Shown: positions 13,796-31,652, numbered from the stretch's first letter. The stretch: 43,407 nt of DNA from Thermoleophilia bacterium (GCA_017882325.1 JADGPQ010000002.1:1-43407), one strand, 5' to 3'. The notes: a model not told the origin generated them from the sequence alone. Numbers and translations: made by a program.

Positions 13796-13881
13796 CATCT
13801 CGCGGCACGAGCCTCGAAAGTGGGCTGGCGCGGCGCCCAGGGGCGCGCGCCGGCGCCGCCAGAGGACGAGCTAGCGAGTCT

Positions 13882-15795: not shown

Positions 15796-16683
15796 TCAGC
15801 CCCAGGCGGGCTCGCAGCGATCGCACAACCCCAAGGCGTTCCAGGCGTCGTAAGCGAGCCCGAGCACCGCGTGTTGCTTGTAGGGCAGCGAGTATCGGCC
15901 GGGGATCGCGCGCCGCACGGCGTCCATGCAGCCCTCGGCGAACAGACGGGCCGACTCCTCGTCCGCGGGTCGGCCCTCCAGAAGCTCTTCGAGACGTGCG
16001 TCGCGAAACGCGGCCTCGCCGACCGCGCCAAGCGCGACTTTGGCCCCTGATACCGTGCCTTCGCCGGCGTCGAGCTTGACGACGAGCGCCATGCTCAGCC
16101 TTGCGACCGTGACTGTCGAGCGCGATCCGATCTTGGCGAACGTCGCCCTGTGATCCGCGTCGAGCGCCGCGAAGCTGACCTCGGTGATGGCCTCGTCATG
16201 GGCGAGGCTGGTGCGGCCCGGGCCCACGAAGATCTGCTCGAGCGACCGCGTCGCGCCGCGGCCGCCGCCGTCGATCGTCCGCACCTCGGCGCCGAGGGCG
16301 ACGAGCGCCGTGACGCTGTCTGCGCACGGCGACGCGTTGGCGACGTTGCCGCCCACGGTGGCGACGTTGCGGATCTGGGCCGAGCCCACCTGGGCGGCGG
16401 CCTCGCCCAGACAGCACGCGTGGCGCCGAACCAGCGGATCGGCCTGCAGTTGGGCGAACGTCGTCAGCGCGCCGACGCGCAGCGTGCCGTCCTCGAGGCG
16501 CACGTAGCCCAGCTCGCGCACACCCGAGAGGTCGATGAGGAGGTCCGGCTCCCAGTGATCCCGGTGCATGCTCCGTATCAGGTCCGTGCCGCCGGCCAGA
16601 AGCCGGCTGCTCGGGGTCGCACGCCGCAGGGCGGCCGTCAGCTCCTGGAGGCCGCCCGGCATCAGCAGTTCGGCGTTCGGCAT
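15796..16683 (-). CDS. Molybdenum hydroxylase (XDH/CoxM-type) FAD-binding subunit
   Basis: ATG 16683 overlaps the upstream stop by 1 nt, giving 295 aa. LLAGGTDL and ATVGGNVANASP motifs. Confidence 0.85.
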   Translation of the reverse strand: MPNAELLMPGGLQELTAALRRATPSSRLLAGGTDLIRSMHRDHWEPDLLIDLSGVRELGYVRLEDGTLRVGALTTFAQLQADPLVRRHACCLGEAAAQVGSAQIRNVATVGGNVANASPCADSVTALVALGAEVRTIDGGGRGATRSLEQIFVGPGRTSLAHDEAITEVSFAALDADHRATFAKIGSRSTVTVARLSMALVVKLDAGEGTVSGAKVALGAVGEAAFRDARLEELLEGRPADEESARLFAEGCMDAVRRAIPGRYSLPYKQHAVLGLAYDAWNALGLCDRCEPAWG

Positions 16684-17192
16684 CAGACGACACTCCCCCC
16701 GCTGCCGAGCGCCAGCGGCGTCGCCACAGACTCCGCCGCCTGCTCGCTCGCCGCCCGGACCGCGGCAACGATGGTCGTGTAGCCGGTGCAGCGACACAGG
16801 TTGCCGGCCAAGGCATGGCGGATTGCCTCTTCCGTGGGGCGCGGATCGGCCAGCAGGAGCGCTTTGGCTGCCATCAGCATGCCCGGCGTGCAGAAGCCGC
16901 ATTGCACGGCGCCGTGCTCGATGAACATGCGTTGCAGCGTATCGAGTCCATCATCGCCGGCCAGTCCCTCGACGGTGAGCACCTTCTTGCCCCGCACCTG
17001 CCCCGCGAGGACCAGACAGGAGTTCACGGCCTTGCCGTCCACGATGACCGTACAGGCGCCGCACTCGCCCTCCGAGCAGCCTTCCTTGACGCCCGTCAGG
17101 CCAAGCTGCAGTCGTAGTACGTCGATCAGGCGCGCCGTGGGCCGCACGTCGAGCTCGTGCTCCATCCCGTTCACGTGGAGCGAGAGTCTCAT
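16683..17192 (-). CDS. Molybdenum hydroxylase (2Fe-2S)-binding small subunit
   Basis: GCSEGECGACTV and CGFCTPG / CRCTGY cluster motifs. Confidence 0.9.
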   Translation of the reverse strand: MRLSLHVNGMEHELDVRPTARLIDVLRLQLGLTGVKEGCSEGECGACTVIVDGKAVNSCLVLAGQVRGKKVLTVEGLAGDDGLDTLQRMFIEHGAVQCGFCTPGMLMAAKALLLADPRPTEEAIRHALAGNLCRCTGYTTIVAAVRAASEQAAESVATPLALGSGGSVV

Positions 17193-19453
17193 CAGACCTC
17201 CGCCTCCCCCGGATAGAGGGCGGCCAGGATCTTCTCCGGCGTAGCCGGCAGATCCGAGAGCGACGTGCCCAAGGCGTGGTTGACCGCGTTGATCACGGCC
17301 GCCGCGGTCGGCACCGTGGCGACCTCGCCGACGCTCTTGGCTCCAAACGGTCCGTCGTCGCCCGGGTGCTCGACGAGCAGCACGCGGATGTCCGGCATGT
17401 CGGGAGCGTTGACGATGTGGTAATTCTTGAACCCGTCGACGCCACTACGTCCGGCCTCGTCCACGTCCATGTGCTCGTATAGGGCGTAGCCGATGCCCAT
17501 CTGCGCGGCGCCCTGGAACTGTGAGTGGACCATGCCCTTGTTGATCGCCTGGCCGACGTCGCCCACGGCGAGGAAGTCGGTCACCGCGGTCAGCCCGGTG
17601 GCGCAGTCGACCTCGACCTCGGCGAACTGCACCGAATAGGACGCCGGGTTAGAGGTCGCGTAGTAGGTGGTCGCCGCCGTGATGGCGGGCGAATGGCGCA
17701 TGTGGCTCAGCCGGGCGATATCCTTGAACGCAACGCCGCGCTGCCCGTCGTCCTGGACGTGGACCTCGCCGCCCTCCACGGTGAGCCTCTCTCTGGGCTC
17801 GTGAAGAAGGTCCGCGGCAGCCGTGATGATCTCCTCTTTGAGCTTCTCGGCCGTGGCCTTGGCGCAGGCGCCGACGACGTAGGTCACCCGGCTGCCGAAG
17901 GTTCCGTAGTCGAACGGCGTGGACGAAGTGTCGGCCTCGCCGGCGGCCACGAGGTCGGGGCTGACGCCGAGCACTTCGGCGACGATGATCTTCATCACGG
18001 TGACGATGCCGCAGCCTGGGTCGTGCAGGCTCGCGCCGAGCTCGAACGTGCCGTCCTCGTTCATCTTGAGCGTCATATTGCTGGCCTCGGCGAACTTGCC
18101 GAACATGCCGTTCTTGTGGGCGCCGCAGGCCACGCCCACGCCGCGGCGGTAGCGTCCACGTCCGGGTTCTCGCCCGCGCCTGGCGCTCCAGTAGAACGCG
18201 GCGGCGCCGCGTTCGAGACATTCGCGCACGCGGGCGTCGCCGAGCGACATCCCGGTGACCGGGTCCACTTCGAAAGGATGCATAAGGTTTAGGAGGCGCA
18301 GGTCGACCGGGTCGAGGCCGAGCTCGCGGGCAACCCGGTCCATGTGGATCTCCAGGGCGCTCACGATCTCCGGCGCTCCCCAGCCTCGCGCCGCCCCGGC
18401 CACCGGCGTGTTCGTGTACACCGCCTGAGAGCGGTGGTGGTAGTGAGGCAGGCGGTAGAGCTTGGTGATCTTCTGGCACACGTGGACGGCGTAGTCGGAC
18501 GTGCTCGATGCGTACGCCCCAGCATCGAGCACGGTCGCGACCTCCATGTCCTCCAACTGGCCCTGCGGGCTGCAGGTCGTGCGGATGGTCGACGCCGTCG
18601 CCGGTCTGACCATGGTCGCGATCATGCACTCCTCGCGGTCGAGCAGGAGCTTGACCGGCCGCCGCGTCTTCTGGGCCATGTAGGCTGTGACCGGCTCGAG
18701 GATGTACTCCGTCTTGCTGCCGAACGAGCCGCCCATGGGCGCCTTGATCACCCTGACGCGGTGATAGTCCAAGCCCAGGAGATCGGCCACGACCGTGCGG
18801 GCGCCGTAGACGCCCTGGCTCGTGCTCCAGACGGTCAGACCCCCCGTGCTGTAGGGCTGCACCACGCAGACGTGAGGCTCGAGCGCGGCGTGGTGGATCC
18901 GCGGAGTGCGCGTCATGCTGCTGACCACCACGGCGTCCGGTGACTGGACTCTGCGACCGCACTCCTCCTCGTGCTCGAAGAACACGTTGCCGCCCGGGTG
19001 GATGGGCAGGTCGTCGCGCAGCTGCGCCTCCTCCGGAGCGAAGAGCGCCGGCAGTTCCCGGTACTCGACGTCGATGAGGGCGACGGCGGCCTCGGCGATG
19101 GCTTGGCTGGTCGCCACGACCGCAGCCACACGGTCGCCAACGAAACGTACGTGTTCGCTGAAGAGCGTTTCGTCCCGCGGGCAGAGCTCCTGCTCCGGCG
19201 TGAGCCGGGCGCGGCAATACACGTCGGGCGGAGTGTTGAGATGCGAGAAGACCTTGACGACTCCCGGCAGCGCCTCGGCGGCGCGGGAGTCGATGCTCGT
19301 GACCATGCCGTGTGGGATGGGGCTGAGCAGAAGCTTGGCGTAGAGCATGCCGTGAAGCTCGATGTCGCTGCCGTACACCAGCTCGCCGGTGACTTTCTGC
19401 GATGCGTCGTGTACGGGATACGTCTGCCCCACGTACTGCAGGTCTTCCGTCAA
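17192..19453 (-). CDS. Molybdenum hydroxylase molybdopterin-binding large subunit (xanthine dehydrogenase/aldehyde oxidase family)
   Basis: 753 aa from a TTG start behind AAGGAGAAGG. N-terminal a/b hammerhead (VGQTYPVHDASQKVTGELVYGSD) and MGGSFGSK block. Substrate cannot be assigned. Confidence 0.85.
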   Translation of the reverse strand: MTEDLQYVGQTYPVHDASQKVTGELVYGSDIELHGMLYAKLLLSPIPHGMVTSIDSRAAEALPGVVKVFSHLNTPPDVYCRARLTPEQELCPRDETLFSEHVRFVGDRVAAVVATSQAIAEAAVALIDVEYRELPALFAPEEAQLRDDLPIHPGGNVFFEHEEECGRRVQSPDAVVVSSMTRTPRIHHAALEPHVCVVQPYSTGGLTVWSTSQGVYGARTVVADLLGLDYHRVRVIKAPMGGSFGSKTEYILEPVTAYMAQKTRRPVKLLLDREECMIATMVRPATASTIRTTCSPQGQLEDMEVATVLDAGAYASSTSDYAVHVCQKITKLYRLPHYHHRSQAVYTNTPVAGAARGWGAPEIVSALEIHMDRVARELGLDPVDLRLLNLMHPFEVDPVTGMSLGDARVRECLERGAAAFYWSARRGREPGRGRYRRGVGVACGAHKNGMFGKFAEASNMTLKMNEDGTFELGASLHDPGCGIVTVMKIIVAEVLGVSPDLVAAGEADTSSTPFDYGTFGSRVTYVVGACAKATAEKLKEEIITAAADLLHEPRERLTVEGGEVHVQDDGQRGVAFKDIARLSHMRHSPAITAATTYYATSNPASYSVQFAEVEVDCATGLTAVTDFLAVGDVGQAINKGMVHSQFQGAAQMGIGYALYEHMDVDEAGRSGVDGFKNYHIVNAPDMPDIRVLLVEHPGDDGPFGAKSVGEVATVPTAAAVINAVNHALGTSLSDLPATPEKILAALYPGEAEV

Positions 19454-19538
19454 TCCTTCTCCTTGTACTCGAGAGCGTTTCTGAGTGTACCAACTCTCCT
19501 TACCGACCGTCGGCCCGGCCTCGCCGCCCTGCGGCCGC

Positions 19539-21176
19539 TCAAATCAGACTCGCTGGTGGTCGCTCTTCGGGCTTGCTCTCCGCAAACCACCGCTCGAAGT
19601 CTACGCGGCAGTCTTGCACCGCCGGAGCCGCACAGGCGCCGCCGACGGACGTGCACAGCAACTCCGGCGGCAGGCTCCGGCCGACGCCGTCGGCCACGTC
19701 GATAGCTTCGTGCAGCGGCAGCACGGCCTCGTGACCGGCCAACGCCAGGTCGGCAAATACGTGCGCCATGCACGTGGCCGCGAGGATGCGGCTGCGGCAC
19801 GGCTGGCAGATGCCCCCCGGCATGGGGTCGCACGGCATGCCGGTGAAGGCCTGCATCGCCAGTGAGGCCGCGTTCTCGGCCTGCTCGGGCGAGCCGCCGG
19901 CCATCTCGACGATGGCGGCGGCGGCCATGGCGCCGCACGTGCCGGCCTCACCCGTGCAACCGGTCACCTCGCCGGTCGGCGCCGAGCGCGTGTACGAGAT
20001 AGCACCGATGCCGGCGGCGACGAAGAGCCCGCGCAACAGATCGTCCTCGCTTAGACCGCGGGCGTCCTGCACGGCGCTCATGGCAGCGTAGATGTAGCCG
20101 GCGCCGCCGCCCATGGGACCCGGTACCACGATGACACCGGGGATGCCGGAGCCGGCGCCGTACGCCCACTTGATCGTCTGCGCCGTGACTCCATCGGCCA
20201 CGGTCCGACCCGACGCGGCGTGCTCGGCCCAGCGGCCGGCGAAATCGGGCTTGAAGGGGCTCGTGGGGACGACGACGTCCTCCTCGTACACGGCGCGCGT
20301 CTGCCGGCGCATGAGGCCGGCCAGCATGCGCATGCGGTCGATGATCCAGGCGCGCGGCCACCCGGAAGCGTCCCTCTCGTACTGGACGGCGACCTCCCAC
20401 AGCGGCAAGTCCTCGTGCGCGGCGATCTCGCGCCAGCGGGTCATCGTGTCGAAGAGCTGGGGCTTGCGGTCGAGCTGGGAGATCACGGGCAGCAAGGGCT
20501 TGAGGACGGCGACGTTGACTCCCGGCAGCCCGGCTGTGAGCAGACCGTTCAGGGCGGCGAGATCCGGCTCGACCGCCAGCATGTAGGCACGCATCACGCC
20601 AAGGCCGTCGACGCCGACCTCGTGGCTGCCAACCAGCTGAGGCAGCTCGGGCACGAGCGCCGCGAGCTGCTCCTCGCCGATCGGTTTCTGGGCGCCGAAG
20701 ACCAGAAGTACGTAGGTGTCGCCGATGGTCCGCAGGGGGAAGCCGTTGACCGCGACCGTCTCCACCATGCCGCCGCCGGTGGAGTTACCGACGAGCTTCG
20801 CCTCGCGGCCGCTGCGGCCCGTCAAGACGAACTTGACGGCGTTAGGATGCCGGCTCTCCGTGATCTCGGTGAACTCAAACACGACCTCGACGACGGCCTC
20901 CTCGGCAAGCTCGAGGGCGCGGAACAGACGCTCGTCGTCGGGCTCAAAGCCGAGGACGCCGCCGACCATGGCCCGGTCCTCGGCCATGATCCCGAAGGTC
21001 CCGGCGAACGAGCCGCGCTCGTCGAGGAGGATCCGTATCCGGGACGGCGGCTCGCCGAGAAGCTGCCCGGCCAGAACGCCGAGCCGGCAAGGCCCGGCGA
21101 AGTGCGAGCTCGAGCCCGGCTGCATGACCGGGCCGAAGACGTCGTTGAAGAACTCCGGGTAGGGGGCGACCGTCAT
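19539..21176 (-). CDS. Fused beta-alpha [4Fe-4S] L-serine dehydratase family protein
   Basis: ATG 21176 gives 545 aa. FNDVFGPVMQPGSSSHFAGPCR N-terminus, ACT-like middle part, and a C-terminal alpha domain with CTGEAGTCGA and CDPMPGGICQPC Cys ligands. Confidence 0.75.
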   Translation of the reverse strand: MTVAPYPEFFNDVFGPVMQPGSSSHFAGPCRLGVLAGQLLGEPPSRIRILLDERGSFAGTFGIMAEDRAMVGGVLGFEPDDERLFRALELAEEAVVEVVFEFTEITESRHPNAVKFVLTGRSGREAKLVGNSTGGGMVETVAVNGFPLRTIGDTYVLLVFGAQKPIGEEQLAALVPELPQLVGSHEVGVDGLGVMRAYMLAVEPDLAALNGLLTAGLPGVNVAVLKPLLPVISQLDRKPQLFDTMTRWREIAAHEDLPLWEVAVQYERDASGWPRAWIIDRMRMLAGLMRRQTRAVYEEDVVVPTSPFKPDFAGRWAEHAASGRTVADGVTAQTIKWAYGAGSGIPGVIVVPGPMGGGAGYIYAAMSAVQDARGLSEDDLLRGLFVAAGIGAISYTRSAPTGEVTGCTGEAGTCGAMAAAAIVEMAGGSPEQAENAASLAMQAFTGMPCDPMPGGICQPCRSRILAATCMAHVFADLALAGHEAVLPLHEAIDVADGVGRSLPPELLCTSVGGACAAPAVQDCRVDFERWFAESKPEERPPASLI

Positions 21177-21180
21177 CGCT

Positions 21181-22197
21181 TCAGCCCTCCACGGCGCTGC
21201 CGAAATGCTGGCCGCCGATCTCGACCCAGGTGCCCAGCTCGCGCTCCTTGGCCTTCGTGTACACGTGGTGCGCGGCCGCGAGGTCTTCGATGGCGATGCC
21301 GAGCGACTTGAACAGCGTGATCTGATCGGGTGACGTCCGCCCAGGCGCTTTGCCGGTGAGCACCTCGCCGATCTCACCGACGATGTGGGCGTCGCCGATC
21401 AGCCCTTCGCCCTTGGGGATGAGGAACTCGCCGGATTCGCTGAGCAGAGATTCACGCCGGTCCGCGTACAGGCGGGCGCCGGCGACGAGCTCGGAATCGA
21501 GCTCCCTCGTCGCCGGCGTGTACGCTCCGACGGCGTTGATGTGGGCGCCGGGGCTGACCCAGGCGCCGAGGACGACCGGCTCGGTGGCCGTGGTCGTCGT
21601 GCAGATGAGGTCGGCGCCGGTGACGGCCTCCTCGGCGGTGGCGGCGACCTGAACGGTGAGACCCGTGAGCCGCGACTCGCGCGCCGCGAACGCCTCGGCG
21701 CTCTCGGCCGGCACGCTGTACACGCGCACGCGCCGCAGCGGCCGCACGGCGCGCATCGCCTGGAGGTGCGTGTGCGCCTGCGTCCCGGCGCCGATGATCG
21801 CGAGGTCGCCGGCATCCGGACGCGCGAGCAAGTCGGTGACGAGACCGCTCACGGCGGCGGTCCGGATCGCCGTGATCGACGTGGCGTCGACGATGGCGCG
21901 CAGCAGGCCACGTTCGCTGTCGAAGAACAGGACGACGCCCTGGTGCGTGTCGTACCCAGTGCCGAAGTTGGCGGGGAAGGCGGCGACCACCTTGACGCCG
22001 AACGCCTCCAGGCCGCCCAGGTACGATGGCATCAGGCCCATGACCCGGTCGCCGCCGGGCATGACCAGCATCTGGCGCAGCGGCATGACGACGTCGCCCT
22101 CGGCGAGCATCGTGAGGGCCCGGCGCATCACGTCGATGGCCTCTTCCATCGGGAGAAGCTCGGTGACCAGCCGCTGGTCCGCGATCAGCGCCTTCAT
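21181..22197 (-). CDS. Ornithine cyclodeaminase / mu-crystallin family NAD(P) enzyme (second paralogue)
   Basis: 338 aa. SITAIRTAAVSGLVTDLLA and IIGAGTQAHTH motifs. ATGA overlap with the upstream gene. Confidence 0.8.
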   Translation of the reverse strand: MKALIADQRLVTELLPMEEAIDVMRRALTMLAEGDVVMPLRQMLVMPGGDRVMGLMPSYLGGLEAFGVKVVAAFPANFGTGYDTHQGVVLFFDSERGLLRAIVDATSITAIRTAAVSGLVTDLLARPDAGDLAIIGAGTQAHTHLQAMRAVRPLRRVRVYSVPAESAEAFAARESRLTGLTVQVAATAEEAVTGADLICTTTTATEPVVLGAWVSPGAHINAVGAYTPATRELDSELVAGARLYADRRESLLSESGEFLIPKGEGLIGDAHIVGEIGEVLTGKAPGRTSPDQITLFKSLGIAIEDLAAAHHVYTKAKERELGTWVEIGGQHFGSAVEG

Positions 22198-23330
22198 GGG
22201 CCGACCTTCTTCAGTCGCGTCGATCCGCGCCGGTAGAGCTCCGCCGCGCGATGTACCGCATCACGGTCGAGCTCGATACCCAAGCCGGGCCTGTCGAGCA
22301 ACCCGATCTTGCCCTGGACGGGCGTGAGATCGGGCGCCGTGACAAGGTCCTCGACGAGCAGCTGGTGCATGATCTGGTTGCCTTCGGTCAGATTGGCGGT
22401 ACGCAGGCCCAGGTGATGCTGAGCGGCGTCGGTGATGCCGGAGACGCCCTGGCCGTGCAGGCAGATCGGCACGCCGGCGGCTTCGGCGATGGCGGCGGCC
22501 TTGCCGAAGGCGAGCAGGCCGCCGGCTTCGTGCGGCGAGAGGACGATGACGTCGGCGGCGCGCTGCCGGCAGATCTCGTACACGTCGGCCGGCGTGAACA
22601 CCGCCTGGTCGGCGGCGATGGGCACCCTCACGGCCTCCTTCACCTGGCGCAGGGCAGCGATGCTCGAGAGCGGCGTGGGCTGCTCGATCCACTCCGGCTC
22701 GAACTTGCGCAGTTTGCCGATCATGTGAATGGCCTCGGGGACGCTCCACGCGCAGTTCGGGTCGAGCCGCAGACGGCGGCCGCCGATCGCTTCGCGCACG
22801 GCCGCCGTGTTGCGCAGGTCGGCGTCCTCGCCGCGCCCGACTTTCAGGTAGATCACCGCGTAGCCCGCCTCTGCGAGGTCGCGAGCGTCTTCGGTGAGCT
22901 CCTCGGTCGTGTCTCCCTGGACGAAGCCGAAATAGTCGACCTCGTCGCGCACGGCGCCGCCGAGGAGCCGGTAGATCGGCCAGCCGACAGCCTTCCCCAG
23001 GATGTCCCAGAGCGCCATCTCCAAGCCGCCGAGGACGAAGTTCGCGTGCCACGGGGTGTGATTGAAGCTCCCCAGATGCCGCGCCCCGGTGATCAGGCGC
23101 TCGACGTCGAAGACCGGTTGGTCTTCAAAGAGAGGCGCAACGCCCTGCAGCGCGGCGACGGTGCCCTCCGCCGGGAAGCCCGCCACGGATTCGCCGATGC
23201 CGACGAGGCCGTCGTCGGTCTCGACTTCAACGAGGACCACGGCCGCCGCGTGATCCACGCGGCCGGCCCAGTGATAGGGCTCGTTGAAAGCCAGGGCGAG
23301 CGGCGTGGTCTGGATGCGGGCGATCTTCAC
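22194..23330 (-). CDS. Enolase-superfamily enzyme, mandelate racemase/glucarate dehydratase-like subgroup
   Basis: 378 aa. Capping domain VGIGES, barrel YLKVGRG, metal ligands in RLDPNCAW / WIEQP / IAADQ, and a putative D...H dyad (ADVIVLS ... ICLHGQ). Confidence 0.75.
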   Translation of the reverse strand: MKIARIQTTPLALAFNEPYHWAGRVDHAAAVVLVEVETDDGLVGIGESVAGFPAEGTVAALQGVAPLFEDQPVFDVERLITGARHLGSFNHTPWHANFVLGGLEMALWDILGKAVGWPIYRLLGGAVRDEVDYFGFVQGDTTEELTEDARDLAEAGYAVIYLKVGRGEDADLRNTAAVREAIGGRRLRLDPNCAWSVPEAIHMIGKLRKFEPEWIEQPTPLSSIAALRQVKEAVRVPIAADQAVFTPADVYEICRQRAADVIVLSPHEAGGLLAFGKAAAIAEAAGVPICLHGQGVSGITDAAQHHLGLRTANLTEGNQIMHQLLVEDLVTAPDLTPVQGKIGLLDRPGLGIELDRDAVHRAAELYRRGSTRLKKVGP

Positions 23331-23349
23331 GACAGACTCCGCTGCCCTC

Positions 23350-24885
23350 TCACGACCCCGGTGATGGGCTCACGCGACGCACCACGGCGGCGAACTGGCC
23401 GTCTGCGACGGCCCGCGCCGCCGCCTCGATCTCCGGCGCCAGGTAGCGGTCGCGACCGAGCGTCGGCGCGAAGCGCCTGACGAGGTCGCGCCCGGCCTTG
23501 GTGCCCACGCCGGCCTGGAGCGGCGCCAGCAAGTCGATCGCCTGCGCCGCGCAAAGCGCCTCGATGCCCAGCACGGTCTGGGCGTTGCGCATGACGTCCT
23601 CGAGCTTGAGTGCTGCCGTCATGCCCATGCTCACGTGGTCTTCCTGGTCGCCTGAGCTCGGAATGGAGTCGACGCTCGCCGGGTGGCAAAGGATCTTGTT
23701 CTCGGAGACCAGCGCGGCCGCCGTGTACTGGGCGATCATGTAGCCGTTGTTGAGGCCGCTGTCGGTGGTCAGGAACGGCGGCAGCTCCGAGAGCGAGCTG
23801 GTCAGCATGCGGAAGATGCGGCGCTCGCTGATGTTGGCGATCTCGCTGGTCGCCATTGCCGCAAGATCGAGGGCGAGGGCGAGCGGCTCGCCGTGGAAGT
23901 TGCCGGCCGAGATGATCTCGCCGCTGTCGGGGAACACGAGCGGGTTGTCGGTGACGGAGTCCACCTCGACGGTGATCACCTCACGCAACCAGCGCAGCCC
24001 GTCGCGACAGGCGCCGTGGACCTGAGGGATGCAGCGGAGCGAGTAGGCGTCCTGCACCTTGTCGCAGTTGAGGTGGCTCAGCATGATCTCGCTGCCTGCG
24101 GTGGCGGCGCGCACGTGCCGCGCCGTGTGGAGCTGGCCGGGGATGGGCCGCAGGAGCTGAATGCGCTCCTGGAACGGGCCGACCGAGGCGCGCAGGCCCT
24201 CAAGGCTCATGGCGCCGATCAGATCGGCGGAGTCGAGCAGCGCTTCGCCGTCGGCCACCGCGAGGCAGCCGATGGCGGCCATGAACTGGGTGCCGTTAAG
24301 AAGGCTGAGGCCTTCTTTGGCTTCGAGCGTGACGGGCGCGAGCCCCGCGGCCCGCAGAGCGGGCCGGGCCGGCTCGCGTCCGCCTTCCAGGCCGAGCACC
24401 TCGCCCTCGCCCATCATCGCCAGGACGAGATGTGCTGAAGGGGCGAGATCGCCGGAGGCGCCCAGCGAGCCTCGGGAAGGGACCCATGGCACGAGGTCGG
24501 CATTGAGCATCGCGGCTACGAGCTCCGCGACTGAGGCGCGCACCCCGGAATGGCCGCGCGCCATGGTGTTGAGGCGGATGGTCATGCCCGCGCGCACGAC
24601 CTCGCGGGGGAGCGGCACGCCGACGCCGACCGCGTGGCTGCGCACCAGGTTCTGCTGCAGCTCCTCGACCTTGTCGGTGGGGATGTGCGTCGTGGCGAGC
24701 AGGCCGAAGCCGGTGGTGACCCCGTAGGCCACCTGCTCTTCGGCGACGACGCGCGCGATGATGTCGTGGGCAGCGTCGATGCGCTCGCGCGCGGCCCGAC
24801 CGAGAGAGACCTCGACCCCGCCACGAGCCACTGCCAGGACGTCTTCGATGCTCAGCGGAGCGTCACCGATGACGATCTGCGTCAT
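23350..24885 (-). CDS. hutH: Histidine ammonia-lyase (MIO-dependent)
   Basis: 511 aa. YGVTTGFG, NLVRSHAVGVG and GSLGASGDLAPSAH (Ala-Ser-Gly triad). ATGA overlap with sucD. Confidence 0.85.
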   Translation of the reverse strand: MTQIVIGDAPLSIEDVLAVARGGVEVSLGRAARERIDAAHDIIARVVAEEQVAYGVTTGFGLLATTHIPTDKVEELQQNLVRSHAVGVGVPLPREVVRAGMTIRLNTMARGHSGVRASVAELVAAMLNADLVPWVPSRGSLGASGDLAPSAHLVLAMMGEGEVLGLEGGREPARPALRAAGLAPVTLEAKEGLSLLNGTQFMAAIGCLAVADGEALLDSADLIGAMSLEGLRASVGPFQERIQLLRPIPGQLHTARHVRAATAGSEIMLSHLNCDKVQDAYSLRCIPQVHGACRDGLRWLREVITVEVDSVTDNPLVFPDSGEIISAGNFHGEPLALALDLAAMATSEIANISERRIFRMLTSSLSELPPFLTTDSGLNNGYMIAQYTAAALVSENKILCHPASVDSIPSSGDQEDHVSMGMTAALKLEDVMRNAQTVLGIEALCAAQAIDLLAPLQAGVGTKAGRDLVRRFAPTLGRDRYLAPEIEAAARAVADGQFAAVVRRVSPSPGS

Positions 24886-25766
24886 GATGACCGCCTCGTT
24901 TCGAGCTGCGCCTGAAGCAGCGGGACGACGTCCGCCGGGGCGGACGCGACGGGAATGCCGGCAGCCTCCAGGGCCGCCTTCTTCTCGGCAGCAGTGCCCG
25001 ACGAGCCCTCGACGATGGCGCCGGCGTGGCCCATACGTTTGCCGGGCGGCGCGCCGAAGCCCGCTATGTAGGCGACCACGGGCCTCGAGACATGCTCGCG
25101 AACATACTCCGCGGCACGCTCCTCGTCGTTGCCCCCGATCTCACCGATGAGCACGACGGCCTCGGTCTCGTCGTCGGCCTCGAAAAGCTCGAGACACTCG
25201 AGGAAACCGACGCCGTGGATGGGGTCGCCGCCCATGCCGACGACCGTCGACTGTCCGATGCCGGCCTGGGTGAGCTCGTGGACGACCTCGTAGGTGAGGG
25301 TTCCCGAGCGGGAGATCAGGCCCACGGCTCCGGGAGCGAACACGTCGGCCGGCATGATGCCGGCGCTGCAACGCCGCGGGGTGATCAGCCCTGGCCCGTT
25401 GGGGCCGACGAGAGCGCAGCCACGGCGCGAGAGATGCGCCGTGACCTCGGCCATGTCGCGCACGGGGATCCCTTCGGTGACGCATACCACGAGGCGGATG
25501 CCGGCGTCTGCGGCTTCGAGCATCGCGTCGCGCGCGAACCGCGCGGGGACGAAGAGCACGGCCACGTCGGCGCCGGTCGCGGCGACCGCGGGTGCGACGG
25601 CATCGAACACGGGCGCGCCCTCAACGGTCTGGCCGCCCTTTCCGGGCGAGACGCCGGCCACGAGGTCCGTGCCCGCGGCGCGCATGCGCGCCGCGTGCAA
25701 GGCGCCCTCGCGCCCGGTGATGCCCTGCACCAGGACGCGGCTGTGTTCGTCGATCAGAATGGCCAT
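24882..25766 (-). CDS. sucD: Succinate--CoA ligase (ADP-forming) alpha subunit
   Basis: VLVQGITGREG CoA-binding N-terminus and MGHAGAIV phosphohistidine loop. Confidence 0.85.
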   Translation of the reverse strand: MAILIDEHSRVLVQGITGREGALHAARMRAAGTDLVAGVSPGKGGQTVEGAPVFDAVAPAVAATGADVAVLFVPARFARDAMLEAADAGIRLVVCVTEGIPVRDMAEVTAHLSRRGCALVGPNGPGLITPRRCSAGIMPADVFAPGAVGLISRSGTLTYEVVHELTQAGIGQSTVVGMGGDPIHGVGFLECLELFEADDETEAVVLIGEIGGNDEERAAEYVREHVSRPVVAYIAGFGAPPGKRMGHAGAIVEGSSGTAAEKKAALEAAGIPVASAPADVVPLLQAQLETRRSS

Positions 25767-26959
25767 CAGTCCTCCCGGCGGGTGTCGGGGCCGGCCGGCG
25801 AAGCCGCGGCGGCGACGGCCAGGCGCACCGCCTCTGCGGCGCTCGCGGCAACGGTCAGACCGGGAAGCCGCGCCTCCGCGAGCACGGCGCGCCCCTCAAA
25901 GGCAGCGTTGCCGTCCAGCCTCACGACCACCGGCACGTCCACACTCGATTGACCGAGCACCTGGACGAGGCCGCGGGCGACCTCGTCGCAGCGGGTGATG
26001 CCGCCGAAGATGCTGACCAGCAGTGCAGAAACGGTGCCGGTGGAGAGGATCACGTCGAGCGCCGCCGCCACGACTTCGGCGCGGGCGCCCCCGCCGAGGT
26101 CGCAGAAGTCGGCGGCGGACCCGCCCGCGGCGGCGATCTGGTCGATGATGCTCATCACAAGACCGGCGCCGTTGCCGAGCACGCCGATGTCGCCATCGAG
26201 CGCGACGAAGGCGAGGCCGGCCTTGCGGGCCCTCGCCTCGCGGTCCTCCGCGCCGGCGTCAGACTCGGCCTTCAGCTCGGCGTGCCGATAGAGCGCGTTG
26301 TCGTCGATGGTCACCTTGCTGTCGAGGCACACGACCTCGCCGAACGTGGTGATCACCAGCGGGTTGATCTCGCAAAGCGTCGCGTCGCTGTCGCGATACA
26401 GGCGCCACAGCGAACGGACGACGCCGCCCAGCGACTGCTTCGCCGGCGTTCCGTCCGGGCCGGCAAGCTCGGGGTCGAGAGCCGCCGCGGCCACGACGTC
26501 GCGCACCTGGTAGTCGCAGAGGCCGAGCAAGGGGTCGACCGGGGTGCGCACGAGAGCGGCCGGGTGGCGGCGCGCGACCTCCTCGATGTCGACGCCACCT
26601 TCGGCCGAGAAGATCAGCAGCGGCCCGCGTTGGGCGCGCGAGGATGAGATCGCAAGGTAGAGCTCGCGCGCGATCTCGACCGCCTCTTCCACGAGCACGC
26701 ACGAGACGCCGTGCCCGCGGATGGTCATGGCCAGGATGTCCGCGGTCGCTGACGCGACCTCGACCTCGGTGGCGCAGACGCGGATGCCGCCGGCCTTACC
26801 GCGGCCGCCGGTCTTCGCCTGCGCCTTCACGACGACGGGCAGGCCGAGTTCGCCGGCCGCCGCCTGCGCCTCCTCCGGCGACAGCGCCAGGCGGGAGGCC
26901 AGGACGGGCAGACCGGCGCCGGCGAACAGGCTCTTGCCCCTGTGCTCGAGCAGATCCAC
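25766..26959 (-). CDS. sucC: Succinate--CoA ligase (ADP-forming) beta subunit
   Basis: ATP-grasp N-terminus MDLLEHRGKSLFAGAGLPV and VVVKAQAKTGGRGKAGGI. GTG start. Confidence 0.85.
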   Translation of the reverse strand: MDLLEHRGKSLFAGAGLPVLASRLALSPEEAQAAAGELGLPVVVKAQAKTGGRGKAGGIRVCATEVEVASATADILAMTIRGHGVSCVLVEEAVEIARELYLAISSSRAQRGPLLIFSAEGGVDIEEVARRHPAALVRTPVDPLLGLCDYQVRDVVAAAALDPELAGPDGTPAKQSLGGVVRSLWRLYRDSDATLCEINPLVITTFGEVVCLDSKVTIDDNALYRHAELKAESDAGAEDREARARKAGLAFVALDGDIGVLGNGAGLVMSIIDQIAAAGGSAADFCDLGGGARAEVVAAALDVILSTGTVSALLVSIFGGITRCDEVARGLVQVLGQSSVDVPVVVRLDGNAAFEGRAVLAEARLPGLTVAASAAEAVRLAVAAAASPAGPDTRRED

Positions 26960-26963
26960 CGGC

Positions 26964-27524
26964 CTACGCCTCGGAGGCGAGGCGACGGCCGAGACGGAAG
27001 GCCTCGACGTTGAGCTCGCGAAAGCGCTCGGGCACGCGGCTGACCACCGCTGCCTCGGCCGCTTCGGCCGGCACCATACCCGTGATCTCCACCAGCGCGC
27101 CGACGGCGACGATGTTGGCGACCACGGTCTTCTTGAGGTGCTCGGCCGCGGCCTGCGTGAACGGAATGCCGTGAAGCTCGCGGCCCCGCAGTCTGTCGTC
27201 GGGCTCGACGAGCCCGGAGTCGTACACGAGCAGGCCGCCGGGGCGCGTGTCTCTGGCGTACTTCTCGTAGGCTTCCTGCGAGAGACACAGGCTCACGTCG
27301 GGGGTATCTATCTCCGGGTAGTCGATCTCGTCGTCGGCGAGGATGGCCTCCGCCTTTGAAGCGCCGCCGCGCGCTGCAGGCCCATAGCTCTGCGTCTGCA
27401 CGACGTTCTTGCCCAGAGCGGTGGCGGCCTCGGCGACGATCGCCGCCGCCAGCAGGATGCCCTGACCTCCTGAGCCGGAGAAGCGGATCTCGACGCGGGA
27501 CGCGTTGCCGTTGGTCTCAGCCAT
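26964..27524 (-). CDS. 2-oxoacid:ferredoxin oxidoreductase gamma subunit
   Basis: IRFSGSGGQGILLAAAIVAEAA motif. 8-nt overlap with the beta subunit. TAG stop. Confidence 0.85.
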   Translation of the reverse strand: MAETNGNASRVEIRFSGSGGQGILLAAAIVAEAATALGKNVVQTQSYGPAARGGASKAEAILADDEIDYPEIDTPDVSLCLSQEAYEKYARDTRPGGLLVYDSGLVEPDDRLRGRELHGIPFTQAAAEHLKKTVVANIVAVGALVEITGMVPAEAAEAAVVSRVPERFRELNVEAFRLGRRLASEA

Positions 27525-28410
27525 GGTGGGCCTCCTGTGCCTGCTCCCGCACTCGAGCGAGCGAGGCGACGAACTCGGCGCGCTCGCTGTGATGCAGCAG
27601 GCCCACGGGGTACTGGTCGCGCAGGCGCGATTCGCCCTCTTCGAACTTGCTGGCCGGTACGGCGTGCTCCTTCTGGCCCTTCAGGAACTCCGCGGGGTCG
27701 GCGGTCAGGTTGAAGCGCCCGTAGTACACGGGGCACGCGGCCATCGCCTCGACTGAGGCGAACCCATTGTGGGCGATGCCGCCGGCGATGACGTCGACGA
27801 GCTGCCGGTAGGCCCAGGCGGTGCCGCGGGCGACATAGGTCGCCCCCGCGGCATGCGCCAGTTCGGAGAGGTCGAAGGCGGCCTCCACGTTGCCGCGAAT
27901 GCTTGTCGTGGACTTGTCGCCGGTGTGCGTGGTGGGGCTCATCTGTCCGCCGGTCATACCGTAGATCGAGTTGTTGAAGATCAGCGCGGTGAGGTCGATG
28001 TTGCGCCGCGCCGCGTGGATGAAGTGGTTGCCGCCGATCGCCGAGCAGTCACCGTCGCCCATGGCGACGATGACATCGAGCGAGGGGTCGGCGACCTTGA
28101 CTCCCGTCGCCACGGCGAGGGCGCGACCGTGAGCCGCGTGGACGGTGGAGTACTCGAGGTACGAGGCGATGCGTCCGCTGCAGCCGATGCCGGCCACGAT
28201 CACGACCTTCTCCGGGTCGAGCTCGAGGCCGAGGATCGCGTCGATGAGGGCGCGGGTGATGGTCCCGTTGGAGCACCCCGGGCACCAGATCGTCTTCGGG
28301 GTGCGCAGCCAGGGGACGATCTCGCTGGTCATATGCGGCTTGATCCGCGGCAGCTTGTAGTCGCCTTCGGGCGGGCTCTCGAGCTTCTGTTCGTCGACAA
28401 GGGCGCTCAT
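27517..28410 (-). CDS. 2-oxoacid:ferredoxin oxidoreductase beta (TPP-binding) subunit
   Basis: ATG 28410 (ATGA overlap) gives 297 aa. WCPGCSNGT and GDGDCSAIGGNHFIHAARRN thiamine-PP motif. The track start 29130 is an artefact. Confidence 0.9.
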   Translation of the reverse strand: MSALVDEQKLESPPEGDYKLPRIKPHMTSEIVPWLRTPKTIWCPGCSNGTITRALIDAILGLELDPEKVVIVAGIGCSGRIASYLEYSTVHAAHGRALAVATGVKVADPSLDVIVAMGDGDCSAIGGNHFIHAARRNIDLTALIFNNSIYGMTGGQMSPTTHTGDKSTTSIRGNVEAAFDLSELAHAAGATYVARGTAWAYRQLVDVIAGGIAHNGFASVEAMAACPVYYGRFNLTADPAEFLKGQKEHAVPASKFEEGESRLRDQYPVGLLHHSERAEFVASLARVREQAQEAHHG

Positions 28411-29570
28411 GGCTTCTCCCAATCGTGGTAGTAGAACTCGGGCTTCACCAGCTCCTCGATCTGCGGCGGCGTGATCAGCTTGCCGTCCACGCGTCCGAAG
28501 TCGACGACTTTGGCGCGCCCGGCCACCGCGGCCTGCACTTCCCAGCTCATCTGCTTGATGTTCATCTCGGGCACGATGACGGTACGCACCCGTTCGGCCA
28601 TGCGGTCGACGGCCAGCGTCGGGAAGGGCCAGAGGGTGATGGGCCGCACGAGGCCCACGGGCACTCCCCTGGCGCGCGCCCACTTGACGACGGCCTTGGC
28701 CGAGCGCGCCACGGAGCCGTAGGCAAAGATGGCCACCTCGGCGTCCTTCATCTCGTACTCCTCGACGCGCGCGATGGCGTCGCGGTGGTGGTAGATCTTC
28801 TCGCGCAGGTAGCGCCCCAGATCGCTGGCGACCTCCGGGTCGCCGGTCTCGGGGGCGCCGCTCCTGCGGTTGTAGACGAGGCCCGTGACGTGCACGCGGA
28901 AAGGCGAGCCCAGCGGCGGCCGCGGGAGGATGTTGTCGAGGTCGCTCATCACGGTGTCGTACTCTTCGGGGGCGCAGTCTGGAGTGCCGCGCTCGGCGAT
29001 GCGCAGGCTCCCCGGCTCGGGCAGCGTTACGGCCTCCCGCATGTGGCCGAGGAGCGCGTCGCTGAGCACGATCACCGGGGTGCGGTACTGCTCGGCAAGG
29101 TTGAAGGCCTCGATGGTGAGCGTGTAACACTCATACACGCTGCTCGGCACGAGGGCGATCACCGAGTGCTCGCCGTGCGTGCCCCACCTGGCCTGCATCA
29201 CGTCGCCCTGGCTGGGCTCGGTCGGCAGGCCCGTGGACGGCCCGCCGCGCATCACATCGACGATCACGCACGGGACCTGCGCCATCTCGGCGAAGCCGAT
29301 CATCTCCTGCATGAGGCTGAAGCCGGGACCGGAGGTCGCGGTGAGCGCCTTCAGCCCGGCGAGCGAGGCACCGCAGACCGCGGCGATGCTGGCGATCTCG
29401 TCCTCCATCTGCATGAACGAGCCGCCGACCTCGGGCATGCGGCGGGCCAGCGTCTCCGCGATCTCCGTGGAGGGCGTGATGGGATAGCCGGCGAAGAAGC
29501 GCGCGCCGGCGGCGATGGCACCCTCGGCGACGGCCTCGTTGCCCTGCATAAGAATCGGTGATGCCGGCAT
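28407..29570 (-). CDS. 2-oxoacid:ferredoxin oxidoreductase alpha subunit
   Basis: MQGNEAVAEGAIAAG, GYPITPSTEI and TATSGPGFSLMQE blocks. Confidence 0.9.
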   Translation of the reverse strand: MPASPILMQGNEAVAEGAIAAGARFFAGYPITPSTEIAETLARRMPEVGGSFMQMEDEIASIAAVCGASLAGLKALTATSGPGFSLMQEMIGFAEMAQVPCVIVDVMRGGPSTGLPTEPSQGDVMQARWGTHGEHSVIALVPSSVYECYTLTIEAFNLAEQYRTPVIVLSDALLGHMREAVTLPEPGSLRIAERGTPDCAPEEYDTVMSDLDNILPRPPLGSPFRVHVTGLVYNRRSGAPETGDPEVASDLGRYLREKIYHHRDAIARVEEYEMKDAEVAIFAYGSVARSAKAVVKWARARGVPVGLVRPITLWPFPTLAVDRMAERVRTVIVPEMNIKQMSWEVQAAVAGRAKVVDFGRVDGKLITPPQIEELVKPEFYYHDWEKP

Positions 29571-29571
29571 G

Positions 29572-29967
29572 TCAGTCCTCCCCTCCGCCGTGGACGCCGC
29601 ACTCGCTGCCCGACACGGGCCGTTCGTCGTCGTCGTCCGGGCGACCGGCGACGGCCGCGATCACCCTGTCGCTCTCCGCCTCGGCGATCTCCTCCGGCGT
29701 CGCCGGCGCGCCCTTCGCCGGCTTCTTGCGGGCCCGGCGCTGCACCTCGATGGCGAAGTCCGGGCAGTGCAGCTCGCAGAGCAGGCAGGACGTGCAGTCC
29801 TCCGCGCGCGCGACGACCGGGTACCCTAGCTCGTCGCGGTCGTACACGTCCTCAGGACATAGGTCGATGCAGATGCCGCAGGCTTTGCAGAGCTCAAGGT
29901 CCAGCGCGACCTGGGAAGCGGGAGCTTGGCCCGCCGCGGTCTTCTCGTCTGCAGTTTTCACCATCAT
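29572..29967 (-). CDS. 2-oxoacid:ferredoxin oxidoreductase delta (2x4Fe-4S ferredoxin) subunit
   Basis: ATG 29967 (RBS GGGAGGG) gives 131 aa. CKACGICIDLCP and CTSCLLCELHCP motifs, plus an acidic C-terminal tail. Confidence 0.8.
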   Translation of the reverse strand: MMVKTADEKTAAGQAPASQVALDLELCKACGICIDLCPEDVYDRDELGYPVVARAEDCTSCLLCELHCPDFAIEVQRRARKKPAKGAPATPEEIAEAESDRVIAAVAGRPDDDDERPVSGSECGVHGGGED

Positions 29968-29969
29968 CG

Positions 29970-31652
29970 TCACCCTCCCACCATCGGCAGGTCGATACCA
30001 GTTTCGCGGGCCTTCTCGATGGCCTCCGGGTAGCCGGCGTCGGCGTGGCGCATCACGCCGGTTCCCGGGTCGCTCGTAAGCACGCGTTGCAGGCGTGCGG
30101 CCATCATGTCGGTGCCGTCGGCGACCACGACCATGCCGGCGTGCAGGCTCTTGCCGATGCCCACCCCGCCACCGTGGTGGAAACTCACCCATGACGCTCC
30201 CGCCGCTGTGTTGATGAGGGCGTTGAGGATGGGCCAGTCGGCGATCGCATCGCTGCCGTCGCGCATGCTCTCGGTCTCGCGATACGGACTCGCGACCGAG
30301 CCGGAGTCCAGGTGGTCGCGGCCGATGACGAGCGGCGCCTTGACCTTGCCGCTGCGCACCAGCTCGTTGAAGATCTGCCCCGCCTTGGCGCGCTCGCCGT
30401 ACTCCAGCCAGCAGATGCGGCAGGGCAGACCCTGGAAGTGGACTTTCTCAGCGGCCATCTTGAGCCAGCGTGTGACCATCTCGTTGTCCGGAAAAGCCTC
30501 GAGCAGGGCGGCGTCGGTGACCGCGATGTCGGCGGGGTCGCCGCTGAGCGCCGCCCAGCGGAAGGGGCCGTTACCGCGGCAGAAGAGGGGGCGCAAATAC
30601 AGAGGCACGAAGCCCTCGAAGGCGAACGCGTCGTCGCAGCCGGCCTCCTTCGCCACCCCGCGGATGTTGTTGCCGTAGTCGAACACGTGGGCACCGGCCT
30701 TCTGCAGGGCGACCATCGCCTCGACATGCGTGACGATGCTCGCGACGGCGCGGCGTACGTACTCTCCCGGGTCGGCGCGCCGCAGAGCGACGGCCTCGTC
30801 GAGGCTCATGCCGTTGGGGACGTAGCCGTTGAGCGTGTCGTGCGCAGACGTCTGATCGGTGACGAGATCGGGTGTGAAGCCGCGGCGCACCAGCTCCGGG
30901 TAGACGTCGGCGGCGTTGCCGAGGAGCGCGATGGAGAGCGGCTTGCGCGCCCTCACGGCCTCATCCGCGAGGCGAAGCGCCTCGTCGAGCGAATCTGTGG
31001 AGACGTCCACGTAGGCGGTCTCGAGGCGGCGTTCGATGCGCGTGGGGTCGACCTCCACGCAGAGCGCCACGCCGCCGGCCATGGTGACGGCGAGCGGCTG
31101 GGCGCCGCCCATGCCGCCGAGGCCGGCCGTCAGGACGAGCCTGCCGGCCAGATCGGACCCGTAATGCGTCTGGCCGGCGGCCGCGAACGTCTGGTAGGTG
31201 CCCTGCAGGATGCCCTGCGTGCCGATGTAGATCCAGCTCCCTGCGGTCATCTGCCCGTACATCGTCAGGCCCAGGGCGTCCAGCCGCCGGAACTCGTCCC
31301 AGTTGGCCCAGTCGGGCACCAGGTTGGCGTTGGCGATGAGCACCCGGGGGGCCATCTCGTGGGTCTCGAAGACGCCTACGGGCTTGCCGCTCTGCACAAG
31401 CAGCGTTTCGTCGTCCTTCAGGCGGCGCAGAGTGGCGACGATGGCGTCGAAGCTCGCCCAGTCGCGCGCCGCCTTGCCGGCGCCGCCGTAGACAATGAGC
31501 TCTTCCGGCACCTCGGCGACCTCGGGGTCGAGGTTGTTCATGAGCATGCGCAGGGCGGCTTCCTGCTGCCAGCCCCTGCAACTGATGTCCGTGCCGCGAG
31601 GAGCGCGCACCGGACGCGGGCCCGCCGGTTTCGTGGATCCTGTGGTGTTCAC
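29970..31652 (-). CDS. hutU: Urocanate hydratase
   Basis: 560 aa from a GTG start. [43 protein letters not shown] and [12 protein letters not shown] blocks. Confidence 0.9.

Follow-up and report, generated by a model that had tools for sequence, protein, structure and literature searches.

Described systems closest to the array

Among described systems, the tetrahydrofolate (THF)-dependent branch of the histidine utilization (Hut) pathway, comprising HutH, HutU, HutI and FtcD, comes closest to the first part of a gene array that we found on a 43,407-nucleotide stretch of DNA from a Thermoleophilia bacterium (GCA_017882325.1 JADGPQ010000002.1:1-43407; hereafter, the window). The array consists of 14 co-directional genes, all on the minus strand (15796-31652), with hutU first and xdhM last. 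It resembles the Hut branch in its equivalog-grade hutH and hutU genes, to which related loci add hutI and ftcD, but differs from it in three respects: korDABG and sucCD, encoding a 2-oxoacid:ferredoxin oxidoreductase (OFOR) and a succinyl-CoA synthetase, separate hutU from hutH; hutI and ftcD are absent from the window; and the array has no evident HutC-type regulator. A 2-oxoglutarate:ferredoxin oxidoreductase coupled to an ADP-forming succinyl-CoA synthetase forms an ATP-yielding branch of glutamate-family fermentation in Thermococcales and anaerobic bacteria. The array shares with this branch a four-subunit OFOR directly followed by sucCD, and differs in that these genes are embedded in an actinobacterial hut operon.

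The second part of the array encodes an enolase-superfamily enzyme (ENOL), a member of the ornithine cyclodeaminase (OCD)/mu-crystallin family (OCD1), a serine-dehydratase-like Fe-S enzyme (SDHl) and a three-subunit enzyme of the xanthine dehydrogenase (XDH) family (XdhLSM). The HpbD pathway of proline-betaine and hydroxyproline-betaine catabolism known from Paracoccus denitrificans and Rhodobacter sphaeroides provides a precedent for an enolase-superfamily betaine epimerase leading to glutamate or 2-oxoglutarate, the end products of that pathway, and there too the enolase gene is tied to betaine uptake and N-demethylation (PMC3950512). The HpbD pathway demethylates with Rieske or flavin oxygenases, whereas the array would use corrinoid-dependent MttB homologues; moreover, ENOL belongs to the 2PGW group and not to the HpbD group. 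The published proline-betaine route has no counterpart of the OCD, the Fe-S dehydratase or the Mo/W oxidoreductase, nor does it run via Δ1-pyrroline-2-carboxylate.

Two further systems share single features with the array. MtgB, MtpB, MtcB and MtyB from Desulfitobacterium and Eubacterium limosum (PMC8604678, PMC13080624) are likewise non-pyrrolysine MttB homologues, and the corrinoid protein and methyl-THF methyltransferase genes of such systems also accompany related loci of the array; however, MtgB-type systems halt after one demethylation and are unlinked to enolase, OCD, serine dehydratase, XDH or hut genes. In 3-hydroxyproline catabolism (PMC5144071; PDB 6T3E), a dehydratase acts together with an imine reductase of the OCD family, as would be the case here, but the array has no proline-racemase-like or aconitase-X dehydratase, and the known pathway has no MttB linkage.

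A probably composite array conserved in Thermoleophilia

The array is probably a composite, predicted operon made of a Hut-Kor-Suc unit and of a corrinoid-dependent unit for an amino-acid betaine, each of which is found separately elsewhere. Genes were assigned to families by Pfam and NCBIfam profile scans with curated cutoffs, and proteins from the window (67-72% G+C), together with reference Hut proteins, were mapped onto 76 distinct ENOL-anchored loci from species-representative genomes (L-numbers below refer to these loci). The nearest relatives of the window are uncultured Thermoleophilia (Actinomycetota) metagenome-assembled genomes (MAGs) from peat, permafrost, lake sediment and Danish soils.

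All 14 family assignments made in the earlier note on this DNA were borne out by the scans. The products of hutU, hutH, sucC, sucD and korA score above curated equivalog or family cutoffs, while ENOL, OCD1, SDHl and the three XDH-family subunits give clear family matches, all below equivalog cutoffs, and belong to uncharacterised subfamilies. The junctions measure, in operon order, +2, +1, -4, -8, +4, -1, -4, +19, -4, +4, +85, -1 and -1 nucleotides (nt), in agreement with the earlier description of 14 tightly coupled genes with a single 85-nt exception, all other junctions lying between -8 and +19 nt. The 85-nt spacer between SDHl and xdhL (19454-19538) carries a strong AAGGAG ribosome-binding site ahead of the TTG start of xdhL, and its folding does not differ significantly from that of shuffled sequences (z = 0.71). 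A scan found no terminator-like or promoter-like site above chance inside the array, and an Rfam scan found no riboswitch there, the sole Rfam matches being PYLIS elements in two genes farther downstream. In unstranded Logan contigs from relatives at 90-95% identity, the relatives' genes are expressed, hutU most highly. In L004 (13849-14955) and L007, the position of the 85-nt spacer is occupied by a gene of the Octopine_DH (opine dehydrogenase) family.

The earlier note had suggested looking for the hutU-OFOR-sucCD-hutH arrangement in other genomes. The order hutU-korDABG-(sucCD)-hutH-...-ENOL-(OCD1)-SDHl-xdhLSM recurs in about 25 species-level Thermoleophilia MAGs, with ENOL identity down to about 71%, and is thus conserved well beyond chance.

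The first gene, hutU (29970-31652), encodes a urocanate hydratase (949 bits on TIGR01228, cutoff 375; thiourocanate models below their cutoffs), and hutH (23350-24885) a histidine ammonia-lyase (HAL; 667 bits on TIGR01225, cutoff 539) with the Ala-Ser-Gly triad of the 4-methylideneimidazole-5-one (MIO) group in a GASGD motif. Between them lie korD (29572-29967), encoding a 2x[4Fe-4S] delta subunit (Fer4; best NCBIfam model OGOR_delta, below cutoff), korA (28407-29570) for the alpha subunit (POR_N and PFOR_II; NF006412), korB (27517-28410) for the beta subunit binding thiamine pyrophosphate (TPP_enzyme_C; best model 2-oxoglutarate ferredoxin oxidoreductase beta, 253 bits, below cutoff), korG (26964-27524) for the gamma subunit (PF01558), sucC (25766-26959) for an ADP-forming succinyl-CoA synthetase beta subunit (NF001913, 406 bits, cutoff 370) and sucD (24882-25766) for the alpha subunit (NF004230, 424 bits, cutoff 336). 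KorDABG is complete, with ferredoxin, POR_N/PFOR_II, TPP-binding and POR gamma domains all present. Of its specificity models, the generic alpha model alone passes (523 bits against a cutoff of 411) and the models specific for 2-oxoglutarate fall below cutoff; it is the adjacency of sucCD that points to 2-oxoglutarate as the substrate.

Is the Kor/Suc branch linked to histidine or to the enzymes encoded farther downstream? Wherever kor genes are found (26 of the 76 loci), they stand beside hut genes, never with the ENOL module alone, and sucCD is missing in six of these kor-bearing loci. This exclusive association supports the route from histidine via glutamate and 2-oxoglutarate to succinyl-CoA, then succinate plus ATP, which the earlier note had proposed from the bracketing of the OFOR and sucCD genes by hutU and hutH.

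Loss of hutI and ftcD from the array in the subclade of the window

The window contains no hutI, hutG, hutF or ftcD according to family scans of all large open reading frames (ORFs), nor any tblastn match to reference HutI, HutF, HutG or FtcD proteins, which confirms the earlier observation that imidazolonepropionase and formiminoglutamate-processing genes are missing from it. The inference that the four extra enzymes stand in their place did not hold. Among the related loci, hutI and ftcD were each detected in 30, and in 28 Thermoleophilia loci both lie between hutH and ENOL, in an array that also holds SDHl (in every case) and OCD1 and xdhLSM (in most). The relatives' genes are of equivalog grade (448-460 bits on TIGR01224 for hutI, 324-328 bits on TIGR02024 for ftcD) and are linked to their neighbours by 4-nt overlaps: in L010, for example, hutH spans 4870-6414, hutI starts at 6411, ftcD spans 7706-8608 and ENOL starts at 8605. 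Since hutI and ftcD coexist with the extra enzymes, the latter are no substitutes for HutI or for the formiminoglutamate step. The ancestral array thus encoded the full THF-dependent Hut pathway plus the extra enzymes.

In the window, the 19-nt junction between hutH and ENOL (23331-23349, minus strand) marks the site where most relatives have hutI and ftcD, about 2.2 kb in all; with both genes inside, the distance from hutH to ENOL is 2203-2260 nt in L010 and L020. Only in the window and its nearest relatives (L004/6, L005, L007, L008 and L067, with ENOL at least 89% identical) does hutH stand directly against ENOL. The two genes abut or overlap slightly (about -18 to +3 nt) in L004, L005, L007 and L008, and L067, where the high-scoring segment pairs are broken, shows 236 nt between them and no hutI or ftcD match. 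As five independent assemblies from different studies share it, the loss of hutI and ftcD from this site is real and common to the subclade of the window. The MAGs of this clade are CAVXXF01 (MFD04716.bin.1.399), CAIOZS01, JAPLCM01, JBAXRL01 and CAVOWE01.

The ratios of nonsynonymous to synonymous substitution rates (dN/dS) of hutU and hutH in this hutI-less clade (0.08-0.13 in five MAGs sharing the loss) place them with the array's most constrained genes, and such strong purifying selection argues that both are still in use. What then supplies the missing steps? On the 2,109,999-bp contig of L004, the closest large relative, no HutI matching either Thermoleophilia type at 62% identity or more appears among the best 120 matches listed, a mapping that covers one contig of one MAG. 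Another Thermoleophilia genome (L085, 8337-12281) has a stand-alone hutU-hutI-ftcD operon adjoining tig-clpP-clpX. The class can thus carry two hut loci, and by analogy a second locus would be a realistic source of the missing Hut steps in the hutI-less clade; this separate operon makes it a simpler explanation than a bypass of HutI. Yet another state is seen in L038, which keeps hutU, kor, suc, hutI and ftcD with no hutH in the array: the hut genes of the array decay differently in different lineages.

The ENOL-OCD1-SDHl-XdhLSM module and its link to MttB

The enzymes encoded downstream of hutH constitute a separate, MttB-linked module. In 14 loci from several phyla, ENOL, OCD1 and SDHl, with or without xdhLSM, occur where neither hut nor kor genes are present, and ENOL occurs with an MttB gene alone in 22 further loci; these sets include Deltaproteobacteria, Chloroflexota and Pseudomonadota MAGs. 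These loci support the fallback offered in the earlier note, namely that the extra enzymes serve a different, co-regulated substrate.

The co-directional array extends beyond the 14 genes: two MttB genes and a transporter, which the earlier note had missed, lie upstream of hutU on the same strand. An Opp/Dpp-type ATP-binding cassette (ABC) importer, made of a permease, a fused double ATPase, a second permease and an SBP_bac_5 binding protein, the last at 36002-37690 (31864-37690 in all, minus strand), lies 211 nt from hutU. MttB_B (38005-39384, minus strand; PF06253, 340 bits; TIGR02369 below cutoff; no in-frame stop) lies 314 nt beyond the importer, farther upstream, and next to it, upstream again, is MttB_A (39388-40842, minus strand), which has a GTG start with a Shine-Dalgarno sequence at 40842. 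Both are uninterrupted ORFs of non-pyrrolysine MttB-superfamily methyltransferases, with no in-frame UAG. MttB_A matches the solved MttB and MtgB structures at 168-193 bits only. When MttB homologues were clustered, MttB_A fell into an orthogroup that partners ENOL, 15 of its 22 members having ENOL within 400 nt. In L046 and L050, the order is MttB_B-SBP-...-ABC-ENOL-OCD1-SDHl, with orthologues of the window's transporter at 79-83% identity. Orthologues of the window's ABC genes (75-83%) stand directly 5' of ENOL-OCD1-SDHl in these two loci, and they flank the module in L061 and L077. Genes for a corrinoid protein, Pterin_bind (MtxA) and URO-D (MT2-type) proteins are found inside such clusters (L004, L054, L061, L065 and L046). 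The literature that we searched contains no paper connecting MttB to either hercynine or the enolase superfamily.

ENOL (22194-23330; MR_MLE_N/C) has PDB 2pgw as its best structural match (349 bits). Its metal triad, D190, E216 and D241, aligns with the ligands of 1jpm, and it keeps Lys163 (beta2) and His292 (beta7), though not the beta6 Lys of MLE-type racemases. We predict that it can abstract the alpha-proton of a carboxylate, acting as a racemase/epimerase or as a dehydratase. It is not an HpbD orthologue, and no HpbD structure is found among its PDB matches at E < 1e-20. It scores 92 bits, against a cutoff of 500, on NF043002, the enolase-type cis-3-hydroxy-L-proline dehydratase. No functional study of 2PGW was found in the literature searched.

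OCD1 (21181-22197; PF02423, 285 bits) is closest in the PDB to 6t3e, a Δ1-pyrroline-2-carboxylate (Pyr2C) reductase (228 bits). It scores 258 bits on NF004793 (cutoff 322), and falls below cutoff on all NCBIfam equivalogs; it is probably an imine (ketimine) reductase/dehydrogenase. SDHl (19539-21176) is a fused beta+alpha [4Fe-4S] hydro-lyase, with sda_beta and sda_alpha halves below cutoff. It misses the serine equivalog models (126 bits for a cutoff of 161, 124 for 243, and 69 for 345 with the mono-type model) while keeping all three cluster cysteines when aligned with the L-serine dehydratase 4rqo. Its sole match in a plasmid collection is on an unannotated Photobacterium replicon, flanked by AraC regulators and an M19 dipeptidase. 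The XDH-family enzyme comprises a molybdopterin subunit, xdhL (17192-19453; Ald_Xan_dh_C and MoCoBD_1/2; best equivalog XdhA, 571 bits for a cutoff of 780), a 2x[2Fe-2S] subunit, xdhS (16683-17192; Fer2 and Fer2_2; best NCBIfam model glyceraldehyde dehydrogenase gamma), and an FAD subunit, xdhM (15796-16683; FAD_binding_5 and CO_deh_flav_C). It is accompanied by SDHl in 31 of 31 loci and, with all equivalogs below cutoff, fits no characterised substrate class (xanthine, nicotinate, CO, 4-hydroxybenzoyl-CoA or aldehyde).

Non-orthologous replacements give some indication of what these enzymes do. A tungsten aldehyde:ferredoxin oxidoreductase (AOR) takes the place of xdhLSM in L061 and L073 (13796-15649), which suggests an aldehyde substrate and makes XdhLSM probably an aldehyde oxidoreductase; genes for iron-containing alcohol dehydrogenases (Fe-ADH) follow xdhM in L008 and L036. 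MmgE/PrpD genes stand beside ENOL in six Chloroflexota loci, five of which have no SDHl. On pSymA of S. meliloti, an ENOL homologue (49% identical; the protein of PDB 2PGW) is followed by an Ldh_2 oxidoreductase gene and preceded by a betaine-type ABC transporter, with an MttB-family gene nearby. The OCD and Ldh_2 families both include Pyr2C reductases and N-alkyl-imine reductases. From the exchanges of OCD1 for Ldh_2, SDHl for PrpD and xdhLSM for AOR, the respective roles would be imine redox chemistry, dehydration and aldehyde oxidation. We also considered nicotinate or trigonelline as the substrate, given a Mo hydroxylase next to an Hmd-like Fe-S dehydratase; this was rejected, as neither an enamidase nor a 6-hydroxynicotinate reductase is present and AOR can take the Mo enzyme's place. 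In L061 (Thermoleophilia FR_37), the ENOL module embeds a full-length non-pyrrolysine MtmB homologue as well as the AOR gene (3688-5064 and 7090-8952).

A proposed pathway and its alternatives

In the first unit of the composite array, histidine would be converted to urocanate, imidazolone propionate, formiminoglutamate and finally glutamate plus formimino-THF. Glutamate would be turned into 2-oxoglutarate by an enzyme encoded outside the array, KorDABG would yield succinyl-CoA and reduced ferredoxin, and SucCD succinate and ATP. For the second unit, formed by ENOL-OCD1-SDHl-XdhLSM, the upstream Opp-type importer and MttB_A/MttB_B, we infer an oxygen-independent sequence of steps. The importer would bring in an N-methylated amino-acid betaine, which ENOL would epimerise or dehydrate at the alpha-carbon before MttB moves a methyl group to a corrinoid protein and then to THF. 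OCD1 would carry out redox chemistry on a C=N bond, SDHl an Fe-S-dependent dehydration giving an aldehyde, and the Mo enzyme would oxidise this aldehyde to an acid. The most economical chemistry would end with oxidation of 2-oxoglutarate semialdehyde to 2-oxoglutarate, which would feed Kor/Suc and rationalise the fusion of the module with this branch. Within the composite reading, the idea that the substrate is (hydroxy)proline-betaine-like and passes through 2-oxoglutarate semialdehyde, drawn from the analogy of the aerobic HpbD pathway and of hydroxyproline catabolism, is tentative and less likely than not. That ENOL, MttB_A and their partners form an undescribed corrinoid-dependent, oxygen-independent pathway from (hydroxy)proline betaine or histidine betaine to 2-oxoglutarate, wired into Hut-Kor-Suc in peat and permafrost Thermoleophilia, is conceivable, with the balance leaning somewhat to the other side.

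Several observations weigh against this composite reading. No corrinoid protein, MtxA or activase was found in the window by tblastn, despite its four MttB/MtbB-type genes, and no glutamate dehydrogenase or transaminase for the step from glutamate to 2-oxoglutarate is present in the array. ENOL lacks the second catalytic Lys (beta6) of HpbD-type racemases, having Ser265 at this position where 2PGW has Gly, and none of the module's enzymes counts as an equivalog of any characterised protein. To our knowledge, no MttB-family enzyme removes a betaine's second or third methyl group. Since kor and suc never accompany the module where hut is absent, its convergence on 2-oxoglutarate is unproven. The transcript contigs, being unstranded and from 90-95% relatives, are unable to prove a single transcript. 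Finally, the presence of canonical hutH in one operon with MttB genes in two other phyla (L054 and L065) hints at one shared, histidine-derived substrate.

This last point leads to the strongest alternative. A single substrate, hercynine (histidine betaine) or another N-methylated histidine, would be imported by the ABC transporter and demethylated by MttB_A, MttB_B and other methyltransferases to L-histidine or N-methylhistidine; HutH and HutU (with HutI and FtcD where present) would then lead to glutamate and Kor/Suc to ATP, while ENOL, OCD1, SDHl and XdhLSM would act on a side product or on another isomer. The window shows the hut-kor-suc block enclosed by the MttB/ABC genes on one side and the ENOL module on the other, and a second MIO lyase gene, HAL2, adjoins IclR and MttB_A. 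In L065, a Pseudomonadota MAG, an equivalog-grade hutH (681 bits) heads an operon that also encodes an Opp-type ABC transporter and an MttB_A orthologue (55%), adjoined by a GntR/UTRA (HutC-type) regulator; L054, an Anaerolineales MAG, has four MttB paralogues and a corrinoid protein gene, then hutH and hutI; and the Thermoleophilia loci L064 and L027 have a second hut set beside an MttB gene. However, most ENOL-MttB_A pairs (22 loci) lack hut genes within 10 kb, hercynine chemistry would leave the racemase, imine reductase, Fe-S dehydratase and aldehyde oxidoreductase with no obvious role, the literature search yielded no paper linking MttB to hercynine, and hutH is an ordinary MIO-type HAL and not an ergothionase-like trimethylamine lyase. 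We therefore regard a single histidine-derived substrate as unlikely.

Less probable still is mere co-localisation, in which adjacent co-directional blocks of a compact genome would be regulated separately with no metabolic tie. Each block is gained or lost on its own (sucCD is missing from the six loci mentioned above and OCD1 in many, while the opine dehydrogenase, AOR and Fe-ADH genes are variable), and internal starts are possible at the 211-nt, 85-nt and 19-nt spacers. However, 4-nt overlaps span the block boundaries (sucD/hutH in the window, ftcD/ENOL in relatives), the order persists to the lowest ENOL identities among the Thermoleophilia MAGs, and hut genes recur beside MttB or ENOL in three phyla, all of which makes pure co-localisation improbable.

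A HutI-independent Hut variant, in which, as the earlier note had suggested for the first step, the Mo hydroxylase would oxidise imidazolone propionate (to hydantoin-5-propionate or similar) and ENOL, OCD1 and SDHl would lead on to glutamate or 2-oxoglutarate, draws on the constraint on hutU and hutH in the hutI-less MAGs and on the lack of HutI matches on the L004 contig, but is very improbable given that 28 loci hold these enzymes (SDHl always, OCD1 and xdhLSM in most) alongside hutI and ftcD and 14 hold them with no hut gene at all, that the Mo enzyme gives way to a tungsten AOR in two loci, that family scans found no hydantoinase or carbamoylase in the window, that a separate hutU-hutI-ftcD operon exists by tig-clpPX in another Thermoleophilia genome, and that the HutI mapping covered a single contig.

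Genes flanking the array

The array lies in a wider neighbourhood, which we view as a methylated-amine island and not merely a hut locus, because MttB, ABC, mtbB and mttB genes flank the array. Upstream, divergent from MttB_A, lies a gene for an IclR-family regulator (41005-41886, plus strand), which likely regulates the array. It is followed by HAL2 (42045-43407, plus strand, running off the end of the window), a second MIO-type aromatic amino-acid lyase, 39% identical to hutH, with NH in the selectivity motif where HAL carries SH. The HAL2 family shows unusual conservation, its members being 76-95% identical across more than 590 metagenome stretches. The MttB_A-IclR-HAL2 arrangement is kept in L088, L090 and L095, and L089 has IclR-HAL2 beside a more distant MttB (36%). 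Downstream (3') of HAL2 in relatives, tblastn gave no hutI or ftcD match; the ORFs there were not family-scanned. An ergothionase-type trimethylamine lyase activity was rejected for both hutH and HAL2, which keep the MIO triad.

On the other side, just downstream of xdhM, the window encodes an Lrp/AsnC-family regulator (15158-15622, minus strand), also present in L004, L007 and L036, then panB (14244-15098, minus strand), for ketopantoate hydroxymethyltransferase, a methylene-THF enzyme, which accompanies the array in L004, L036, L038 and L073. This panB may be other than housekeeping. In L066, a Thermodesulfobacteriota MAG, a 70%-identical panB directly adjoins two MttB genes (around 14-17 kb). 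Next comes OCD2 (12731-13798, minus strand), a second OCD/mu-crystallin paralogue, 29% identical to OCD1, with archaeal alanine dehydrogenase and SbnB as best models; it lies 7 nt upstream of mtbB.

The genes mtbB (11257-12723, minus strand) and mttB (9791-11260, minus strand) each have an in-frame TAG at the pyrrolysine position (11623-11625 and 10277-10279, respectively), and the Rfam elements PYLIS_2 and PYLIS_3 immediately downstream of these codons score 73.5 and 70.8 bits. The source is a pyrrolysine-using actinobacterium. No pyl gene or tRNA-Pyl is present in the window. Expression of pyrrolysine-type mttB and mtbB by peat Actinobacteriota has already been published (PMC10805028).

Convergent with the array, the region 1019-9682 (plus strand) holds Fer4, CCG (HdrD-like), HdrA-like, FlpD/MvhD, Fer4 and FAD/NAD-binding genes. 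The same Hdr-type cluster stands beside MttB_A orthologues in L046, L050 and L038. This Hdr/MvhD-type cluster may be an electron-bifurcating partner of methyl-THF oxidation.

Implications

What is new here is a Hut operon with an embedded Kor/Suc branch, joined to an uncharacterised betaine module; the kinds of component are known. The comparison also removes, as unsupported, the tempting idea of a Mo hydroxylase bypassing HutI, and gives a genomic context to the orphan 2PGW group of enolases and to a distinct subfamily of fused serine-dehydratase-like enzymes. In peat and in thawing permafrost, quaternary amines give rise to methylamines and, through them, to methane. The array offers a concrete set of genes for the fate of the betaine carbon skeleton after corrinoid-dependent demethylation, and shows its possible coupling to ATP via 2-oxoglutarate:ferredoxin oxidoreductase and succinyl-CoA synthetase. 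If the proposed pathway is true, one array would yield methyl-THF, reduced ferredoxin and substrate-level ATP from betaines derived from plants or fungi.

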